Assembly: GCA_963741955.1 (NCBI GenBank)
Contig: CAVUKB010000004.1
Span: 224,001 to 288,000 of the forward strand
Direction of reading: 5' to 3'
DNA from: an uncultured Acidobacteriota bacterium
GTDB taxonomy: Bacteria > Acidobacteriota > Thermoanaerobaculia > Gp7-AA8
DNA length: 64,000 bases
Shown: in pieces, positions 3,001 through 12,370 of the stretch
Numbering within the stretch: position 1 is the first letter of the stretch
How the letters are laid out: each line of letters starts with the position of its first letter
Made by a program: the position numbers and the translations under genes
The notes under the pieces: generated by a model
Databases searched by the model: none
What the model saw: the letters and a program-made list of their open reading frames with translations, nothing else
What the model was told of the DNA's origin: nothing

Positions 3001-4588
3001 GGTCGGTCGTGACGTAGAGCCTCCACCGCGCAACTGCATCGCGTGAGTGCCAGCTGCTGGCGGAGACGAGCGCCTGCCGGCCGTTGCGATTGGCTACGGC
3101 AAAGAGGTTGTGGGAGTAGGCGTCGCGGAGGTCGAAACGAGCCATTCCATCGGATCCCGTCAGCTCGGTCCGGGAGACCGTGGAGGGGGTCGAATCGTAG
3201 GTACTGTCCCAGAGCGTCACGCGCGTGCCGGCGAGTGGCGCTCCGGTGGTCGAGTCACACGCGTAGACGATGGCGCGGTTCGCCGCGCTCTCGAGAACGA
3301 GGGCTGCGTCGCTGATGAGCACGAGATCGCGCGCGGAAACTCCCTCTCCTCGTGCTTCGAGAAGATACGCGCCCGGGTCCAGCTGTCGGGGAACGCGAAT
3401 CTGTTTCGTTCCCGGAACGTGACCGGCCGACCCGGCCGTTTCACTCCACCTGGCGACCGGTGAACCGCCGGTCCGGATCCGGTCGAGCCAGTCGCCTCGA
3501 CGTTCGTCCATCTCCACGTCGCGGGTGAGATCGAACGGCGTGAGGGTCAGGTCCACAGTCGTCACATTTCTCCACGAAAGAGTGAACGCGACTTCGGAAT
3601 TCGGGAGAAAGACGTTCGAGACGGCCACCGCAACGGTGGGAGAGACGATGTCGTGGATCCGATTCTCCGCCTGGTCGCGGTAACGGCTCTCTCCTTTGAC
3701 GAACTCCGTAGTGAGGCGACGGTACGTCTGGAGCGCAGCGTCATAATCGGGGATGAAGCGGATCGCGCCGTTGTCTTCCTCCACCACTCCGCCCTGCCGT
3801 TCCAGCCACTCCGCGAAGTGGAAGAGGGCATCGTCGTACCACGCGACGCTCCGACCGGGGGCGATCGCGGCCCGGAAGGCCTCTGCGATCCGCTCGTGAA
3901 CGTCCGGATCCGACCCGCGCTGCTGCAGAGCGGTCGCAAGGAGATAGTTCGCGTGCGCGAGATCGACCGGAGTCTTCGCGATCCTGACGGCATTCTCGAG
4001 AATCTCCTGGGGAAGTCGTCCCTGATATCCGTAATCACCATTTCCCCACGCCGCCGGGGGCGTGGCCATGTCCCAGACGATCTGCAGATAACGCGTGCGC
4101 GCCGTCTCCAGATCGCTGCTCGCACCCCAGTACGAAAGGGCCCTCTGGTAATGAGGGAAGGCTGCGCTCCACTCCCCGAACTTCTCCCACCACGAATCGG
4201 CGAGCGATTCCTCGGCTTCGGCCGCGATGAGGTCCGCGGGCTGTGAGTCGCTTCCCGCGAGTCGCTGGAGCTCCTTCCGCGCGGCTTCGAGTTTCGTCGG
4301 GTCCGGATTGTTCGTCGAAGCGAACGAGCGCCATTCGGTATCGGCGAGGCGAAAGTCCACCCACCGCCGTTGCACCGTCGAGAGGTCGAGTGCTGCGGCG
4401 GTCGCATAGAGCTCGTGCGCCTTCGCCCACGACTTTGCACTATAGAGAGATTCGGCACTCTGGCGGATCTCCTGGTACGAGGAAGGAGGTGCCGCGTTCT
4501 GCGGCTTCGGTCGAGCCGCAGAGCTCGCGACGAGGGCGATCAGTGCGATTCCGAGCAGGACGGAGACTTTTGCGGCGATCGATCTCAA
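1..4588 (-). CDS. Bacterial alpha-2-macroglobulin family protein (3' end runs off the window)
   Basis: Absent from the ORF track because it is open at the left edge. TTG start at 4588 after GGAGG; signal peptide MRSIAAKVSVLLGIALIALVASSAA; thioester motif YPYGCTEQ (CTEQ at 362-373) in the same frame as the start. Confidence 0.9.
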   Translation of the reverse strand, partial: MRSIAAKVSVLLGIALIALVASSAARPKPQNAAPPSSYQEIRQSAESLYSAKSWAKAHELYATAAALDLSTVQRRWVDFRLADTEWRSFASTNNPDPTKLEAARKELQRLAGSDSQPADLIAAEAEESLADSWWEKFGEWSAAFPHYQRALSYWGASSDLETARTRYLQIVWDMATPPAAWGNGDYGYQGRLPQEILENAVRIAKTPVDLAHANYLLATALQQRGSDPDVHERIAEAFRAAIAPGRSVAWYDDALFHFAEWLERQGGVVEEDNGAIRFIPDYDAALQTYRRLTTEFVKGESRYRDQAENRIHDIVSPTVAVAVSNVFLPNSEVAFTLSWRNVTTVDLTLTPFDLTRDVEMDERRGDWLDRIRTGGSPVARWSETAGSAGHVPGTKQIRVPRQLDPGAYLLEARGEGVSARDLVLISDAALVLESAANRAIVYACDSTTGAPLAGTRVTLWDSTYDSTPSTVSRTELTGSDGMARFDLRDAYSHNLFAVANRNGRQALVSASSWHSRDAVARWRLYVTTDRPAYRPNETAHWKVVARTEAGESYTTPSGAKIHYVINDPRGSKVAEGDLQLNEFGSGWGTLQTTESMPLGMYTIGFQDASSRWIGQAEMFRLEEYKLPEFRVSVETAEKDGRKVAYRLGDTVEATIDSQYYFGAPVTDGSVEVLVRQKPWRRIWMPDRRYGWYFDQGISPYASGQPGQIVKREELRTGPDGKVTFRFDTPRGSQNDLEYTVEARVTDSSRREVTGSGTLRVTRQSYYVDLRPKHYLHRPSDRVAIDLHTSDPNDQPLPVSGEITVTRDEWHEVWRDPSGQRVTGEALERIRSRDRTFPPRALPGHPGWTLVSKGYESEKVSTSRVSTNTKGVATFTFTPDREGYYRVAWQSADRGGRVTRIPIPIRAETAVWVATNATTDLGYRYGGLQLIVDEESVSVGRPLPLMIVTPAAGRWVLFSIETDRIDDLRVIHVDGTAKWVELPVEPKHIPNVFLSAAMVSDDQMFVDTKEVIVPPERKFLDVRVESDRNEYRPREHGRITVTTLDSDGRPVPAEVSLGVVDASVYAIQDDPAGDPRRFFYGGKRAHQATTTSSFQLRPYVRMVEDDQHRLVAERSRSGADAYRNKDESSDGPRLEGEIGASGGFVRSLDSVAQEITVTATTPPPAPKPQMAQKVSANAASPAENPVVVRSDFRSTVFWQPDLKTGADGKATVDLTGPDSLTTWTAKARAVTPSTQVGIGTSDTVTNKPLIVRLQAPRFLLTGDEVVISAVINDNSNDPMRVTSSVEATGLAPLADAGTKEVDVAAGGEKRIDWRFRVLDPGMAKLRVTARSAGESDAMERELRIFDHGIQKLVAKSGKIRDSAATISLSLPAERREGTTSLTVQITPSMAVTMLDALPYLIDYPYGCTEQTMSRFLPTVIVARTLRSLGVDPATVATRLFGGVEPEYAGQTHPDGAKSLDRMNDMTRKSLQRLYDFQHADGGWGWWKEGESDHYMSAYVVWGLALARDAGVEIRSGVLDRGVEYLRKELV

Positions 4589-4699
4589 GAACCACCTCCC
4601 ACAACTGCGACATTAGACACGGGAAGGGCGAATGAGGAAACCCGTCCGCTCGTAGCCCTCCTCTTCCATCCGGGCACGGGGGATGTAATGCTTCTGCGC

Positions 4700-7510
4700 A
4701 TGCAGGCGAACAGCGAATCACTTCTCAGCGATCAGATTCACCTCCTGGGCGATCTCCTGGGCGACGTGATCGTCGATCAGGAGGGACGCGAGACCTTCGA
4801 TCTGGAAGAGAGGATCCGCGGGCTGGCCAAGGCGCATCGCGCCGGGGAGGCGCGAGCGGCGTCGGAGCTTCTCGAGATCGTGAAATCGCTCTCCCTTCCC
4901 CGGGCTCGCGCGATCGCGAAAGCCTTCGCGGTCTACTTCAGGCTGGTGAATCTCGCCGAAGAGGCGGAACGGGTGCGAGTGCTCCACGCCCGTGCGATCG
5001 CGTGGGAGCAGAAAGGAGAGCCGCTCGCCGAGACGCTCGCGGATGCGATCTCCCGCCTCCACAGCCGCGGGATGGGAGGAGAAAAGATTCTCGAGCTCCT
5101 CGGACGGCTGGCGGTCCGCCCCGTCTTCACCGCGCATCCGACGGAGGTCAAGCGGCGGACGATCCTCACGAAGCTCTCCGAGATCGCGGCGCTTCTTCAG
5201 CGGCTGGAGCGCGAGCGCCCGACGCCGCAGGAACGACGCGAGATCGAGCTCGATCTGAGGGAGCACGTCCTCTCGTTGTGGCAGACCGAGGAAGGGAGGC
5301 CGGAGAAGCCTTCGGTTCTCGACGAGGTGCGGAATGGTCTCTACTACTTCGAGACGACTCTGTTCGATCTCGTTCCCCGGATCGTCCACTCGGTGTCGAT
5401 GGCACTCGGCAGGATCGCTCCGGAGCTCGCGACGGTGCATTCCGGCGGAGCGGCGCTGGTGCCGCTCGCGCGCATTCCTCGGTTCATCGAGTTCGGGTCG
5501 TGGATCGGAGGCGATCGCGATGGGAACCCGTTCGTCACTCCCGCCTTCACCGAGGAGACGTTGCGTGCGCAGAGGCGGATGGCGGTGCGGCTCTACATGC
5601 GAACGATCGACCGGATGCACGGGCATCTCAGCACCTCGGATCGATGCGGGATCAGTGAAGCGCTCGCGGAAAGACTCGCCGGGGCAGCGACACGATTTCC
5701 GGAGATCGCGAAGCACGTGAGCCGGCGCTATCCGTCGCAGCCCTATCGACAGATGCTCTTCTTCATCTACCGGAGGCTCGCCGCCACCCTCGACGAGAGC
5801 GAGACGCCGACGACCGAGCCGCTGCGCAGCACGCGTTACGAAACTCCGGAGGAGTTCCTCGCCGATCTCCGCTGCATCCGGGACAGCCTGAGCTCGAATC
5901 GCGCCGCGCTTCTGGCGGAGGGACGGTTCGGTTCTCTCGTCGTCCAGGCGGAGACGTTCGGATTTCATCTCGCCACGCTCGACATCCGGGAGCATTCGGC
6001 GAAGCACGAGAAGGCTCTCGACGAGTTGTTCCGGGTGAATGGGATCGCCGAAGGGTATGCCTCGATGGATTCCGCGGATCAGGAGCGGCTTCTCTCGGCC
6101 GTGCTCGAGCGCGGAGGGGCGGGAGTGCGAAGAGTCGGAGTGTCGGAAGAAACGAGCCGCATCCTGGAAGTGTTCGGCGTGATCCGCGGCGCCCGCGAGC
6201 GGATGGGACCGCGGGCCATCGACAGTTACGTGATCAGCATGGCCGAGGCGCCGAGCGACGTGCTGGAGGTCCTGCTGCTGGCGAAGATCTGCGGAGCGGA
6301 TGAGGGTCTGCAAATCGTGCCGCTGTTCGAGACGGTGGAGGATCTTCATGCGTCGGCCGGTGTGATGAAGAGGCTGTTCGGCAATGCGGTGTACTCGAAA
6401 CACCTCCAGTCGATGGACCGCAGGCAGCAGGTCATGATCGGCTACAGCGATTCGAACAAAGACGGTGGGTATCTGGCCTCCAATCGCGAGCTTCACGTCG
6501 CGCAGCGTGAGCTGGCGCACGTATGCGACGAGGCGGGAGTGGTGCTGACGCTCTTTCACGGGAGGGGCGGATCGATAGGCCGGGGTGGCGGCCCCGCGAA
6601 TCGGATGATTCTCGCCCAGCCGGCGGAGTCGATTCGCGGCCGGATCAAAGTGACCGAGCAGGGAGAGACGATCACCGAGCGCTACTCCAACGACGAGATC
6701 GCGCGGCGTCATCTCGAGCAGCTCACCAGCGCTGTTCTCCTGATGACCGGGCGCGCGGGCGAGATCGCGGATGGCAGCGGTGCCACGGTGGAGGAATCGG
6801 CAAGTCACGATTCGTGGGAAACGGCACTGAAGGAGATGTCGGCTGCGGCCGAGCAGTGCTATCGCGATCTCGTGCACCGCACGCCAGAGCTGGTCGACTA
6901 CTTCCATCAGGCGACGCCGATCGATCTGATCTCCCGGCTCAACATCGGCAGCCGCCCGGCGAAACGGAAGGCGGGGGGATCGATCGGCGACCTTCGCGCG
7001 ATCCCGTGGGTGTTCTCCTGGACCCAGTCGCGCGTGAACCTGCCGGGCTGGTTCGGTCTCGGGACGGGAATCGAAACGTGGACCGGCGGCGAGGAGAGCC
7101 GCTGGGAGCTTCTCCGGACGATGTATGCGCGATGGCCTTTCTTCTGGACCGTGATCAACAACGCGCAGATGGCGATGCGGAAAGCGGACATGGTGATCGC
7201 GGAGGTCTACTCGACGCTGGCGGCCGGCGAGGTCCGGAAGGCGATCTTCCCGCGCCTGGGAGACGAATTCGCCCGGACGGAGAGGATGATCCTGCGGCTG
7301 ACCGGACAGGAGAAGCTGCTGGAGCGCGAGGAATGGCTGCAGTCGGCGATCCGGGTGAGGAATCCGTACATCGACCCGATGAACTTTCTCCAGGTCGCGC
7401 TCCTCCCGCGTTTCCGCGAATCGGTGAACGAGACGGAATCGGAAGTCCTGCGCGACGTCCTGCACATCACCGTGAACGGAATCGCCGCGGGATTGCGCAA
7501 CAGCGGGTGA
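4700..7510 (+). CDS. ppc: Phosphoenolpyruvate carboxylase
   Basis: Motifs VFTAHPTE, SWIGGDRDGNP, QVMIGYSDSNKDGG, FHGRGG, LRAIPWVFSW and C-terminal GLRNSG. Start re-called at ATG 4700. Confidence 0.96.
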   Translation: MQANSESLLSDQIHLLGDLLGDVIVDQEGRETFDLEERIRGLAKAHRAGEARAASELLEIVKSLSLPRARAIAKAFAVYFRLVNLAEEAERVRVLHARAIAWEQKGEPLAETLADAISRLHSRGMGGEKILELLGRLAVRPVFTAHPTEVKRRTILTKLSEIAALLQRLERERPTPQERREIELDLREHVLSLWQTEEGRPEKPSVLDEVRNGLYYFETTLFDLVPRIVHSVSMALGRIAPELATVHSGGAALVPLARIPRFIEFGSWIGGDRDGNPFVTPAFTEETLRAQRRMAVRLYMRTIDRMHGHLSTSDRCGISEALAERLAGAATRFPEIAKHVSRRYPSQPYRQMLFFIYRRLAATLDESETPTTEPLRSTRYETPEEFLADLRCIRDSLSSNRAALLAEGRFGSLVVQAETFGFHLATLDIREHSAKHEKALDELFRVNGIAEGYASMDSADQERLLSAVLERGGAGVRRVGVSEETSRILEVFGVIRGARERMGPRAIDSYVISMAEAPSDVLEVLLLAKICGADEGLQIVPLFETVEDLHASAGVMKRLFGNAVYSKHLQSMDRRQQVMIGYSDSNKDGGYLASNRELHVAQRELAHVCDEAGVVLTLFHGRGGSIGRGGGPANRMILAQPAESIRGRIKVTEQGETITERYSNDEIARRHLEQLTSAVLLMTGRAGEIADGSGATVEESASHDSWETALKEMSAAAEQCYRDLVHRTPELVDYFHQATPIDLISRLNIGSRPAKRKAGGSIGDLRAIPWVFSWTQSRVNLPGWFGLGTGIETWTGGEESRWELLRTMYARWPFFWTVINNAQMAMRKADMVIAEVYSTLAAGEVRKAIFPRLGDEFARTERMILRLTGQEKLLEREEWLQSAIRVRNPYIDPMNFLQVALLPRFRESVNETESEVLRDVLHITVNGIAAGLRNSG

Positions 7511-7650
7511 GAAGCATCGTGGATCGTGAATTGAGAATCGAGGATCTGAAAGGCATCGAGGATTGAGGATGGTCGAGCCCCCCGATGCCGTTCTATGCCT
7601 TTCAGATCCACGATCCACGATCCACGATCCACGATGCCGTTCGATGCCTT
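7511..7650. repeat. Heptamer/15-mer composite intergenic repeat with inverted arms
   Basis: GAGGATC-like units plus GATCTGAAAGGCATC, then an inverted arm TATGCCTTTCAGATC(CACGATC)n. Starts at the ppc stop codon. Confidence 0.85.
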
Positions 7651-7662
7651 TATACTGCGCCC

Positions 7663-9507
7663 GTGAGTGAGCTCGATCCGAGGAACGAATACGAACGAAG
7701 GCTCGACGAGCGCCGGACCGCGGCGACGCGACTCGCGCGGCGGGAAGAGACGATCTCCTGGTCGCGGCTGGCGGTCTTCGCGGCCGGTGTGGTGATCGCG
7801 TGGATCGCGTTCGTCGATCGCGCAATGGCGGGATGGTGGTTTCTCCTGCCGGTGGTGGTCTTCGTGACGCTGGTGGTGCTGCACGAGCGGTTCGCTCTGC
7901 GGAGGAAGAAACTCGAGCGCGCGGCGGACTTTTACGAGAGCGGGCTGGCGCGCCTCTCCGGCCAATGGGCCGGGCGCGGGCGGACGGGACTCCAGTTCCT
8001 GACCGAGTCGCATCCGTACGCAGGGGATCTCGATCTGTTCGGCACCGGATCTCTCTTCGAGAGGATCTCGCTCGCCCGTACGCGGCGAGGGGAGGAGATG
8101 CTCTCGAACTGGCTTCTCTCGCCGGCGTCGCCGCCGGTGATCACGCTGAGGCAGGAAGCGGTGGACGAGCTCCGGTTCGCGCTCGATCTGCGGGAAGATC
8201 TCGCCGTTCTGGGTGAGGACGTAGGGACGGGAGTCGATCCGAAACATCTGTCGAGGTGGGGGGCCGACCCGAAGGTGATTCGCAAGCCTGCGCTTCGGTG
8301 GACGGCGCTGCTGCTGTCGGTGCTCGCGGTTCTGACCGTTCCCTCTCTCGTGGTGGCGCTGGTCTCACGTACCGAGCCGGAGCTGACGGCAGGAGTTGCC
8401 GGGTCGCTCTGGTTCCGCTTCGGCGCGCTTCCCTTCGTGATCGTGGTGATCGTCGAGATGCTCTTCGCGAGATCGCTGCGCGGACGGGTCGCCCGTATCG
8501 TCGCGCCGCTCGAGCTCGCGGAGCGGGAACTGATGCTTCTGGCGACGCTGCTGCGCCGTCTCGAGCGCGAGACGTTTCGAAGTCCCCGCCTCTCCACTCT
8601 TCGCGACGCACTGTCGCGTTCCGAAGAAGCGGCTTCGATGAGGATCGAAAGACTGCACCGTCTCCTTGCTCTGCTGGAGTCGCGACGCAACATGTTCTTC
8701 GCTCCGATCGCCGCGATCCTCCTCTGGGAGACGCAGCTCGCGATGGCGATCGACCGGTGGCGCGCGGAATCAGGGCCGGAGATCGCGCAGTGGCTCGATT
8801 CAGTCGGTGAGATCGAGGCACTCTCTTCGTTCGCGTCGTATGCGTTCGAGAGACCCGCGGATCCATTCCCGGAGATCGTCGACGGCGAGACCCGTTTCGA
8901 GGCGGAGGGACTCGGACATCCCCTCCTCCCGGTGGAGCGATGCGTGCGGAACGATCTCCGCCTCGGCGACGAGCTTCGTCTTCTGATCGTCAGCGGATCG
9001 AACATGTCGGGGAAGAGCACCATGCTCCGCACGGTGGGAGTGAACACGGTCCTCGCGCTGGCGGGCGCTCCGGTCTTCGCCCGCCGTCTCCGTATCTCGA
9101 GGTTGTGCGTCGGAGCGTCGATCCGGATCAACGACTCTCTGCAGGAAGGGAGCTCGCGGTTCTACGCCGAGATCGTCCGTCTGCGGCAGCTCCTGGAGAT
9201 CTCCGAATCCGGACCTCTCCTCTTTCTTCTCGACGAGATCCTCGGCGGGACGAACTCCCACGACCGGCGCATCGGAGCGGAAGCAGTGGTGAAAAGCCTC
9301 CTCTCGCGGGGGGCGATAGGACTGATGACCACGCACGATCTCGCGCTCTCCGAGATCGCGGACGGTGATGCGCTCCGGGCGAAGAACGTGCATTTCGAGG
9401 ATCACGTCGAAGGCGGGAAGATGGTCTTCGACTATCGGATGCGCGACGGGGTGGTCGAGAAGAGTAACGCGATCGCGTTGATGCGGATGGTGGGGCTCGA
9501 GGTCTGA
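7663..9507 (+). CDS. Membrane-anchored MutS-related ATPase (no mismatch-binding domain apparent)
   Basis: Walker [11 protein letters not shown], Walker [18 protein letters not shown]; several hydrophobic segments in the N-terminal half. GTG start 6 nt after TATACT. Confidence 0.88.
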
Positions 9508-9551
9508 CCGACCATTCGTCGATCCGGCGAACTGCTCTCGAGGGGGGAAGG

Positions 9552-11048
9552 ATGAGTGAAGGGATGGACAACACCCGCGGGATCGTCAATGCTCCCGAGT
9601 TTCCGAAGGACCACGACTGGCTGAACGCCGGGCGGCCCCTCACGATGAAGGAGCTGCGCGGGAAGGTGGTCATTCTCGAGTTCTGGACCTTCTGCTGAAT
9701 CAACTGCCACCACAATGTCGCGCAGTTGCGCCGACTTCGAGAGCATTTTCCGGACGAGCTGGTGGTGATCGGCGTCCATTCGGCGAAGTTCCCGTCCGAG
9801 AAGGAGACGGAAAACGTTCGTCAGGCGGTGATGCGCCACGGTATCGAACATCCGGTGATCAACGACCGCGGGTTCCGCATCTGGAACGACTACGGAATTC
9901 ATGCCTGGCCGACGGTGGTGCTGATCGACCCGAACGGCAAGGTGGTCGGGATGAAGCCGGGAGAGATCGACGCCGATGAGTACATCCCGCTGATCGACTC
10001 GATTCTGGAACGGAACGCGGATCGGATCGACCGCTCACCGCTGCCGGTCGGATCGGAGAAGAGCCTCGAGCGCGAACGCCTTCTTTCGTTTCCGTCGAAG
10101 CTTCTCCTGGCGGACGAACGGTTGTTCATCGCGGATACCGGGCACCACCGCATTCTCGAGCTCCGGCTCGGGGAAGGAACCGACGCGGAGATTCTGCGCA
10201 TCTTCGGAAGCGGCGCGGAAGGATTCGACAACGGCCATTACGAGAACGCCTCGTTCCGGGATCCCCACGGGATGGCGCTCGAGGGATCGAGCCTCTATGT
10301 GGCAGACACCGGCAACCACGCGATCCGAGCGGTCGACCTCGAGGGGGGCTACGTCCGCACGGTCGCCGGAACGGGAGAGAAGGGGAGCTGGCGTCTTCAG
10401 GTCGGAAGGGCGCGGGAGGTGGCGCTCCGTTCTCCCTGGGCGCTGCAGGTGACCGATGCGGAGACGCTTCTGGTCGCACTCGCGGGATCGCACCAGATCG
10501 GGCTACTGCTCCACGAGGAGCAGATCGGTCCATTCGCGGGGAGCGGGCAGGAAGCGCTGGTGGACGGTCCGCGCGAGACCGCCGGATTCAATCAGCCCAG
10601 CGACATCGCGTTCGGGATGGATCACGTCTTCGTCGCCGACTCGGAAGCGAGCGCCATCCGCGCGATCGTTCTCGACGAACCGCTGCGCGTGATGACCATG
10701 GTCGGGCAGGGACTGTTCGAGTTCGGGGACGTCGACGGCACGGGCGCCGAAGTCCGGTTACAGCACCCGACCGGGATCGCGCTGGGTGAAGACGGTCAGA
10801 TCTACATCGCCGACAGCTACAACCACAAGATCAAGGTGCTCGACCCTGCCACCGGGAGGACGACGTCTCTGATCGGGAGCGGACGGGCGGGCGATCGCGA
10901 CGGCCCGTTCGACGAGGTCGAGCTCCGCGAGCCGGAAGGAGTGGTCGAGCGGGGCGGAGTGCTCTACATCGCGGACACCAACAACCACGCGATCCGGGTC
11001 GCCGATCTCGCCGCACGCACGGTGAGGACGCTCGAGATTCGAGGCTAG
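9552..11048 (+). CDS. Thioredoxin-like + NHL-repeat protein (NHLRC2/SOQ1-like), probable selenoprotein with in-frame UGA at 9696-9698
   Basis: ATG 9552 after a purine-rich RBS reads ...[40 protein letters not shown]..., in frame with track ORF 9726..11048 ([27 protein letters not shown] repeats). The TGA occupies a Cys position of the family motif CCINC. Confidence 0.88.
9701..9728 (+). promoter_or_regulatory. Candidate SECIS-like hairpin just 3' of the UGA
   Basis: CAACTGC (9701-9707) pairs perfectly with GCAGTTG (9722-9728), starting 2 nt after the UGA. Confidence 0.5.
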
Positions 11049-11059
11049 GAGTCTGCGCG

Positions 11060-11196
11060 GTAGAAACTGTCCTACTGCGAAAGCGGATCAGCGGTCCAAA
11101 TCCGCCCCGATTTTCGGCGAGTAGCCACCGCTACGCACCTCAAATCCGAACGAATTTGGCCTCGCTGCTCCGCTTTCTCGCTACGGACGTTTCTAC
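11060..11196. repeat. Long imperfect palindrome (MITE/REP-like) between convergent genes
   Basis: GTAGAAAC...GAAAGCGGATCAGCG...CCAAAT pairs with ATTTGG...CGCTGCTCCGCTTTC...GTTTCTAC; central mini-hairpin GTAGC-CACC-GCTAC. Confidence 0.7.
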
Positions 11197-11204
11197 GGCT
11201 AGGC

Positions 11205-11240
11205 CCGAGTCTCGAGCCTCGAGCCTCGAATCTCGAGCTT
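11205..11240. repeat. Short CTCGAGC-type heptamer tract after the VIT1 stop
   Basis: cccgagt ctcgagc ctcgagc ctcgaat ctcgagc. Confidence 0.65.
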
Positions 11241-11242
11241 CA

Positions 11243-12370
11243 TCACCCTCCCAGCGAGACTCCAACGAGCCGTCCGATGCCGTACACCAGTGCCGCGGCG
11301 GTGAGGCCGAACACGACCTGGCGTCCTCCGGAGAGAATCACGGGGCGGCCGGTGAAGAGGGTGATCGCACTGCCGATGGCGAAGAGGCCGATGGTGCTGA
11401 ATCCGACGCTCCACGCCACCGCGTCCATTCCGCTGGTGAAGAAGTACGGGATGACCGGAATGATCGCGCCGACCGCGAAGAGGAAGAACGAGGTGATCGC
11501 CGCTTCCCATGCCGATCCCCCGAGCTCTTCCGGATTGATGCCGAGCTCTTCACGTGCGAGGGTGTCGAGCGCGGTCTCGTGGTTGGACATCATCTGCTCG
11601 GCCAGATCGAGCGCGCGCGCCTCGTCCAGTCCCCGACTCTGGTAGATGAGCGCGAGCTCTTCTTTCTCCTCTTCCGGCGCGGCGATCAGTTCCGCTTCCT
11701 CCGTCGCGATCTGATGCTCGTACAGCTCCCGTGAGCTCTTCACCGAAAGCCACTCCCCGAGAGCCATCGATCCGGCTCCGGCGAGGAGTCCGGCGAGTCC
11801 GGTGATCAGAATCGAGCGGGCAGCCATCGCCGCACCGGCCACTCCCATCACCAGGCTCAGATTCGAGACGAGGCCATCGTTCGCGCCGAGCACCGCGGCG
11901 CGGAGAGCGTTTCCCCCGGCGGTGCGGTGGCGTCCCTCCATCCGCGCGACCTGACTCCCTTCGAACCCTCCCGGCACCCCGCTCATCAGCCGAAGCACGC
12001 GCGCGTGCGAGCGCTCTTCGGCGTCGAGCTCGGCCGCGTCGGGCTGCTGCGCGTACTTGTGGCTGTCGGCCCGCTCGAGTGACTGCACACTGGGGAGCAC
12101 GGAGCCGACGCCGAAGCGTTTCGCGATCCAGCCGAGAGTGCGCGTACGCCAGGAAGGGCGGAACTTCGGAGTCGGTACCCCGGCCCGCTCCAGCCGGTAA
12201 CGCCAGGTCTCGGCGTGTTTCCGTTCGACGGACGCGAGGCGCCGGTAGACCTCCGAGAGCTTCGGGTCCTTTTCCGCGTCTGCGATCGCGTCGTAGAGCG
12301 CGGCTCCGTTCAATTCGTCTTCCAGGTTTTCGAGAAGTCGCTCTTTCTCTGATTCGGAAATCTCTTTCAT
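11243..12370 (-). CDS. Ferritin/rubrerythrin-like domain fused to a VIT1/CCC1 transporter (Fe/Mn exporter)
   Basis: N-terminal ExxH motifs (ERKHA, ERSHA); VIT1 motifs LRAAVLGANDGL and SMALGEWLSVKS. Upstream TTGACC-17-TACAAA promoter. Start re-called at 12370. Confidence 0.9.
   Translation of the reverse strand: MKEISESEKERLLENLEDELNGAALYDAIADAEKDPKLSEVYRRLASVERKHAETWRYRLERAGVPTPKFRPSWRTRTLGWIAKRFGVGSVLPSVQSLERADSHKYAQQPDAAELDAEERSHARVLRLMSGVPGGFEGSQVARMEGRHRTAGGNALRAAVLGANDGLVSNLSLVMGVAGAAMAARSILITGLAGLLAGAGSMALGEWLSVKSSRELYEHQIATEEAELIAAPEEEKEELALIYQSRGLDEARALDLAEQMMSNHETALDTLAREELGINPEELGGSAWEAAITSFFLFAVGAIIPVIPYFFTSGMDAVAWSVGFSTIGLFAIGSAITLFTGRPVILSGGRQVVFGLTAAALVYGIGRLVGVSLGG

Follow-up and report, generated by a model that had tools for sequence, protein, structure and literature searches.

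Results

The locus and its reading frame

The window, that is, the whole stretch of DNA that was analyzed, comprises 64,000 nucleotides of contig CAVUKB010000004.1 (positions 224,001 to 288,000 of the forward strand) in assembly GCA_963741955.1, from an uncultured Acidobacteriota bacterium. On its plus strand, one reading frame extends from an ATG at position 9552 to a TAG at 11046-11048 and contains a lone in-frame TGA at 9696-9698, which is codon 49. Translation of 9552-11048 with the TGA as U yields 498 residues, including the segment EFWTFC-U-INCHH, in which residue 49 is the predicted selenocysteine (Sec). The extent of this coding sequence, 498 codons plus the stop, is supported by full-length cysteine (Cys) homologs having an equivalent start (M..NAPEFP) and by a match to the PDB sequence of SOQ1 over residues 13-497. 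A purine-rich stretch, GAGGGGGGAAGG, at 9540-9551 on the same strand abuts the start codon and is a putative ribosome-binding site.

An earlier note on this DNA, made from the letters alone, had described an uninterrupted frame from the ATG at 9552 through the TGA into a 440-amino-acid (aa) open reading frame (ORF), and had supposed that gene callers truncate the gene. Both points were borne out. For this region the mechanical ORF list contains only 9726-11048 (plus strand, 440 aa, TTG start), which is a shortened form and no separate gene, and the entry for the gene in the public protein collection (P0002, 428 aa) is shorter still. The base itself, which the same note had wanted confirmed, recurs in a contig made by another assembler from a soil-metagenome run, identical over 9500-9900 at a word depth of 10.2 with no variant listed; this run is probably the source sample, so the agreement counts against an assembly slip only and does not represent independent biology. 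No RNA run was among those listed as containing the stretch. TGA also acts as an ordinary stop in the window, where the upstream ORF at 7585-9507 terminates at a TGA at 9505-9507.

The neighboring genes encode a phosphoenolpyruvate (PEP) carboxylase, a MutS-like protein, an HrpB-type helicase, and, on the opposite strand, a VIT1-family protein. They offer no functional hint, which agrees with PMC6107167, where bacterial homologs are said to lack conserved neighbors. A scan of 9300-11400 for promoters and terminators found none, and Rfam models at gathering thresholds had no match in the window. Short CTCGAG-containing repeats (GAGTCTCGAGCCTCGAGCCTCGAATCTCGAGC) occur in the spacer at about 11205-11240, just past the 3' end of the minus-strand VIT1-family gene.

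Domain architecture and family membership

The predicted protein consists of two domains. The first, at residues 15-138 (9594-9965, plus strand), is a thioredoxin-like domain of the TlpA/DipZ type that holds the motif C48-U49-I-N-C52; the Pfam models Thioredoxin_8 (E 6.5e-13), AhpC-TSA (E 3.7e-11), and Redoxin (E 5.6e-9) cover these residues, and the Pfam match therefore spans the TGA. The second, at residues 178-497 (10083-11042, plus strand), is a six-bladed NHL-repeat beta-propeller (Pfam NHL, E 4.7e-30). An AlphaFold2 model (pLDDT 93.3, pTM 0.91) contains both domains, with 24 propeller strands in six groups of four and with residue 49 between the strand at 39-45 and the helix at 50-65, the classical position of a CxxC motif. 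The codon of Pro120, in an A-W-P-T segment, lies at 9909-9911 (plus strand); this proline is invariant in a 22-sequence alignment (A1), is expected to lie opposite the active site, and is presumably equivalent to the cis-proline of human NHLRC2, Pro-163 (PMC6107167).

Searches of the PDB placed the protein in the NHLRC2/SOQ1 family, matching Arabidopsis SOQ1 (7djj, E 1.8e-111, residues 13-497) and human NHLRC2 (6gc1, E 3.9e-94) over both domains, with the two matches covering residues 11-497. Foldseek superposed the model on 6gc1 and 7djk, again over both domains and about 520 columns, with TM scores of 0.92-0.93, a root mean square deviation of 1.8-2.0 A, and 37-40% identity. The comparison with NHLRC2 and SOQ1, whose motif is CC(I/V)NC, had been drawn in the earlier note and proved apt. 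In the alignment with SOQ1, U49 falls on the second C of CCINC, the query having C-U-I-N-C at residues 48-52, so that the placement of Sec at the first Cys of CxxC, as claimed there, is the same as placement at the second Cys of the family motif. Human NHLRC2 has Cys-90 at this position, and the motif is described as standing at the N terminus of helix 1, facing the propeller (PMC6107167).

The protein ends at residue 498, at the end of the propeller, and the beta-stranded C-terminal domain with a Cys pair that is found in SOQ1 is absent, as it is from 29 of the 31 TGA-bearing loci described below. A separate gene for this domain gave no match in the genome at E <= 1 in a weak search with one query, the 135-aa domain of a homolog. 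The C-terminal domain is called non-conserved in PMC6107167, and its absence is for that reason not taken to exclude membership in the family. We considered a link between Sec and the loss of this domain and rejected it as unsupported: Sec forms are short in 30 cases and long in 2, and Cys forms are short in 13 and long in 35, yet these counts contain only two to four independent contrasts (sign test, p = 1), and long forms make up 62 of the 110 N-truncated relatives in the database. No signal peptide or hydrophobic N terminus is visible in the 498-residue protein.

Alternation of UGA and cysteine codons at position 49

In species-representative genomes, 583 homologous loci were confirmed, and the best 80 of these were compared at the DNA level. 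At the codon aligned to U49, 31 of the 80 have TGA and 48 have TGC or TGT, and the motif is missing from 1 (L043); the alternation of TGA and TGC that had been named as a check on the Sec reading is therefore present. In the TGA-bearing loci the 35-45 codons upstream are in frame and conserved (GKxVxLxFWTxC), as is the (I/V)NC that follows the TGA. By the taxa given in the genome records, these TGA forms belong to Chloroflexota (Caldilineaceae, Anaerolineae, Dehalococcoidia including SAR202, and Ardenticatenia), Thermomicrobiota, Planctomycetota, NC10, and Dormiibacterota. Across the 80 rows formed by the window and the 79 loci that have the motif, 64 have Cys and 16 have Gly directly before U or C, which marks this preceding residue as dispensable, and the U/C-x-x-C pair is constant, continuing as INC in 71 rows, VNC in 8, and MNC in 1.

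Among the best 120 protein relatives, 110 start past the Sec position, and the 10 that are full length have CC[IV]NC. A VHSxKF block that follows Sec by 26 residues in the query lies 3-25 residues from the N terminus in 108 of the 110 shortened records, a comparison that covers protein records only. The N-truncated relatives are often named "alkyl hydroperoxide reductase" or "hypothetical."

The locus in which the motif is missing, L043 (an Anaerolineaceae metagenome-assembled genome [MAG]; P0017), has lost both the CxxC motif and the upstream thioredoxin fold; at about locus position 2117, an unrelated N terminus runs into the conserved part.

A predicted SECIS hairpin within the coding sequence

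Bacterial SECIS elements are stem-loops with G or U in the apical loop, usually located roughly 16-37 nt after the UGA. A hairpin of this kind is predicted at 9717-9735 (plus strand; GUCGCGC, loop AGUU, GCG(C)CGAC) from local folding and comparative pairing. It has seven pairs and one bulged C, begins about 21 nt after the U of the UGA, and places its AGUU loop 28-31 nt past that U. A hairpin in this position is found in all 32 TGA rows (the 31 loci and the window) and not in the Cys rows. The local fold of the window's own hairpin is -9.5 kcal/mol; the mean is -10.1 kcal/mol in the 32 TGA rows versus -3.8 in the 48 Cys rows (Mann-Whitney p 6e-12, among rows that are kin).

The pairing is maintained by compensatory change. 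In a gapless alignment (A2), 89.3% of the hairpin cells are paired, and five of the seven pairs have changed on both sides, for example from G-C to C-G where an Arg codon CGG becomes a Gly codon GGG. None of 500 shuffles matched the observed pairing or covariation score, and control positions obtained by sliding the stem were 34-67% paired. Because related rows are not independent, the p value and the shuffle counts make the support look stronger than it is. Of the 32 TGA rows, 30 have the loop AGUU; the Leu codon within the loop is TTG in 30 of these 32 rows but in only 4 of the 48 Cys rows. Since the hairpin overlies the conserved peptide Q-L-R, part of its sequence conservation is at the protein level; the Cys form L052, in which the peptide PQLRQL is identical, encodes it with other codons and lacks a hairpin of this kind. 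The earlier note had allowed that close relatives might all carry Cys, with relaxed selection on this copy; the TGA-bearing relatives keep both the upstream thioredoxin-fold sequence and the covarying hairpin.

Folded alone, 9690-9760 is not more stable than its shuffles (z +0.67; of 200 shuffles, 151 fold equally well), and its minimum-energy fold uses a competing stem that pairs columns 6-12 with 27-33, at 9701-9707 and 9722-9728. The case for the hairpin is accordingly comparative and not thermodynamic. This longer stem is paired in 94.6% of cells in the relatives, but it shows zero compensatory change and is broken in L056 and L058, and it was not preferred.

The two loci just named, both of the NC10 type, have the peptide PELDAL instead of PQLR and a different hairpin, CCAGAGC-UGGAU-GCUCUGG, located two bases further downstream.

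Selenocysteine machinery

The genome to which the window belongs (G000; 5.44 Mb in 16 contigs, 99.1% complete) encodes all four components, selA, selB, selC (tRNA-Sec), and selD, which the earlier note had proposed to search for. The tRNA-Sec scored 69.5 bits and was called by ARAGORN as SeC with anticodon tca; SelA was found at E 4.6e-118, the SelB wing domain was found inside a 662-aa frame, and SelD was found at E 2.4e-107 with one in-frame TGA. That a Sec machinery exists in this lineage, as had been implied, is true but unsurprising: SelA is present in 39 of 40 relatives from the family, order, and class of this genome (37 of 38 when the two unpublished genomes, G022 and G030, are left out), and the sole miss is 78% complete. 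Among the genomes that supplied the homologous loci, SelA was detected in 30 of 31 with the TGA form versus 37 of 48 with the Cys form; the TGA-bearing genome in which it was not seen is a 3.1-Mb MAG (that of L049) that lacks a completeness figure.

The selD gene of this genome appears to encode a selenoprotein itself (L011, G000:C7:621471-625412), with TTGG-U-ACKLGQ at about locus position 1528 and, directly after it, a long hairpin with a GGAU loop. A selD with its own Sec codon and hairpin indicates that the organism already decodes UGA as Sec.

Phylogenetic distribution and origin

No ortholog spanning both domains was found in the 40 relatives (0 of 40, or 0 of 38 without G022 and G030). 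Their best matches cover the propeller, at up to 36% identity over most of it, or the thioredoxin-like domain alone. A quick tree computed by maximum likelihood (LG+G4; 495 columns, 80 rows) places the window's protein in a clade of seven Sec-only rows with an SH-aLRT support of 100. The other members of this clade come from Caldilineaceae, from further Chloroflexota, and from two Planctomycetota, and the row nearest to the window's protein has 61% identity with it. The Acidobacteriota rows in the tree are all Cys forms and are placed elsewhere. The state at this position has changed between Sec and Cys at least four times among the 80 rows, and two of the changes are forced by well-supported branches.

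The lack of a two-domain ortholog in the 40 relatives and the grouping with Sec forms of Chloroflexota and Planctomycetota suggest that the gene was acquired horizontally by this lineage, apparently together with its in-frame SECIS. Its GC content (0.643) and GC3 (0.82) are the same as those of the neighboring genes, so any transfer was not recent.

Two genes upstream, the PEP carboxylase at 4370-7510 (plus strand) has its best named matches in Chloroflexi/Ardenticatenaceae (55-57% identity) and Vicinamibacteria (53%). It may be that the affinity to Chloroflexota is not confined to the selenoprotein gene, or simply that the lineage is poorly sampled.

Discussion

Proposed function and its alternatives

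We conclude from the sequence evidence that 9552-11048 is almost certainly a real but misannotated selenoprotein gene, the internal TGA of which would insert Sec at the active site. In the model we favor, and consider highly probable, one gene encodes a cytoplasmic redox protein with two domains that belongs to the NHLRC2/SOQ1 family, the UGA at codon 49 is read as Sec by means of the hairpin at 9717-9735, and catalysis relies on U49 and C52. The recoding part of this model, which the earlier note had put forward as a 498-aa UxxC protein, is very probable in view of the alternation, the hairpin, and the sel genes. SelB carrying Sec-tRNA(Sec) would bind the hairpin inside the coding sequence while the ribosome is at the UGA, and Sec would be inserted at codon 49 to give a C-U-I-N-C active site. 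The thioredoxin-like domain is predicted to pack on the six-bladed NHL propeller, with the propeller and the interdomain cleft holding the substrate. U49 would then attack an oxidized substrate in the cleft, C52 would act as the resolving residue with formation of a selenylsulfide, and a cytoplasmic thiol donor would recycle the enzyme. The substrate is most likely an oxidized protein and, by analogy with SOQ1, perhaps a methionine-sulfoxide or a disulfide/sulfenate target.

Three alternatives to this model were weighed. The first is that read-through of the UGA inserts a residue other than, or in addition to, Sec, for example Cys or Trp by near-cognate decoding or Cys carried on tRNA-Sec at low selenium, with the site serving mainly as a selenium-dependent expression switch. 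Sequence data cannot tell Sec from Cys at a SECIS-dependent UGA; however, the hairpin, the complete sel set, and the occurrence of SelA in 30 of the 31 TGA-bearing genomes together form the signature of SelB-dependent decoding, and the position is that of a catalytic Cys, the typical site of Sec in UxxC families (PMC13188914). This explanation is very unlikely.

Slightly less likely still is that the TGA is a plain stop, either in a pseudogene inactivated by a nonsense mutation or upstream of the only product made, an NHL protein of 440 (or 428) aa with a headless thioredoxin fold. This is what gene callers output, and TGA is a normal stop in the genome, as in the gene directly upstream (9505-9507). 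A plain stop does not account for a TGA at the identical codon in 31 loci of several phyla with the upstream codons conserved in frame, or for a following hairpin that shows compensatory changes and is absent from Cys forms. By the structural model, moreover, the product of the downstream ORF would be without the first strand of the fold and the CxxC motif. The gene and its neighbors also have the same GC3, 0.82. An error of sequencing or assembly that put TGA in place of TGC or TGT is scarcely credible, since, although the window comes from a metagenome-type assembly and the sole run containing it is probably its own source, the contig of the second assembler is identical over 9500-9900 with no variant listed at a depth of 10.2, and the local SECIS-type hairpin and TTG loop codon match TGA forms and not Cys forms.

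Comparison with related proteins

Among the closest known systems, the lumenal thioredoxin-like and NHL domains of Arabidopsis SOQ1 (7DJJ/7DJK) and human NHLRC2 (6GC1) have the same two-domain architecture and the same motif position. The window's protein differs in being bacterial and apparently cytoplasmic, in having Sec in place of the second Cys of the motif, and in lacking the C-terminal domain, the HAD domain, and the membrane anchor. Of the solved structures, the nearest stand-alone relative of its thioredoxin-like domain is the C-terminal thioredoxin-like domain of Mycobacterium tuberculosis DipZ (2HYX/5CYY; E 7e-22, residues 8-152), which has the motif SCINC (PMC6107167); unlike the window's protein, DipZ is fused to a DsbD-type membrane domain, has no NHL propeller, and carries Cys, not Sec.

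Bacterial thioredoxin-fold selenoproteins of the UxxC kind (PMC13188914, PMC9312934) likewise have Sec first in CxxC, a TlpA/Prx-like fold, a SECIS within the ORF, and widespread Cys homologs. The generic families described in these papers are a Prx-like thiol:disulfide oxidoreductase (PF00578), a thiol:disulfide interchange protein (PF13098), and a thiol-disulfide isomerase-like protein (PF13905/cd02966). Neither NHL nor propeller occurs as a word in the main text of PMC13188914, PMC9312934, PMC1794560, PMC2398784, PMC12013277, or PMC13326102, nor does NHL in that of the selenoproteome paper PMC1088965. Judged by titles and abstracts, none of the papers listed links SOQ1 or NHLRC2 with Sec or deals with an NHL-repeat thioredoxin selenoprotein in bacteria, and where NHL and selenocysteine appear together, NHL has an unrelated meaning. 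Among the NCBIfam selenoprotein models none scored above its cutoff, the best being NF041054 (WAxxUGC_long; 23.9 bits against a cutoff of 300). Thioredoxin-fold UxxC selenoproteins are thus a known kind, and the NHLRC2/SOQ1-like member with Sec is new as far as the main texts and NCBIfam show; compared by descriptions, the thioredoxin-NHL family may already be counted under the generic umbrella families or in supplementary lists, including BSepDB.

Implications for NHLRC2 and SOQ1

The value of the finding lies in annotation and in its pointer to the catalytic residue of NHLRC2 and SOQ1. As noted above, 110 of the best 120 database relatives are recorded in N-truncated form, with the active site missing, and many of these entries would be repaired by a simple model that combines UGA, hairpin, and family. 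In humans, NHLRC2 is essential and is mutated in FINCA disease; what it does biochemically is, as for SOQ1, described as only partly known (PMC6107167; preprint 10.1101/2024.11.01.621559). The natural occurrence of Sec at one position of the motif argues that this position performs redox catalysis, and it shows which residue to mutate or trap.

A bolder reading, which we offer tentatively and consider somewhat doubtful as a whole, takes this further. The exchange of Cys for Sec, seen in many lineages with at least four changes, would mark the second Cys of CCINC (Cys-90 of NHLRC2) as the true nucleophile, and the thioredoxin-like domain of NHLRC2 and SOQ1, inactive in the standard insulin assay, would be a real catalytic center acting on propeller-held substrates even without the C-terminal domain; the window's copy would have moved between phyla with an intact SECIS in its ORF that the SelB of the recipient can still read. 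The lumenal domains of SOQ1 are reported to be redox active with methionine sulfoxide reductase activity, and this chemistry is reported to need the cysteines of the C-terminal domain (preprint 10.1101/2024.11.01.621559), which counts against carrying it over to the window's protein. If the thioredoxin-like domain is the catalytic center, the absence of the C-terminal domain from the window's protein and from 29 of the 31 TGA-bearing loci would mean that catalysis does not need it.

For the study of Sec evolution, the family provides a clean set of Sec and Cys forms, with at least four changes among 80 rows, and a likely case in which a gene passed from one phylum to another along with its internal recoding signal.

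Two Cys forms from Dehalococcoidia/Chloroflexota, L067 and L098, are nested in the large Sec clade and have lost both the AGUU loop and the TTG codon; judged by their placement and sequence, they look like reversions from Sec to Cys.

Other thioredoxin-fold proteins in the relatives of the window's genome also deserve mention. A simple check for a UxxC pattern in the TGA-containing thioredoxin-like matches of two of them (L033 and L034) found none. In several relatives, with similar rows of the unpublished genome G022 left out, thioredoxin-like matches contain a single in-frame TGA, for example at G003:C19:2661-3083, G024:C10:162651-163040, G036:C14:3127-3489, and G040:C41:15999-16349, and these may be other thioredoxin-fold selenoproteins of the lineage.
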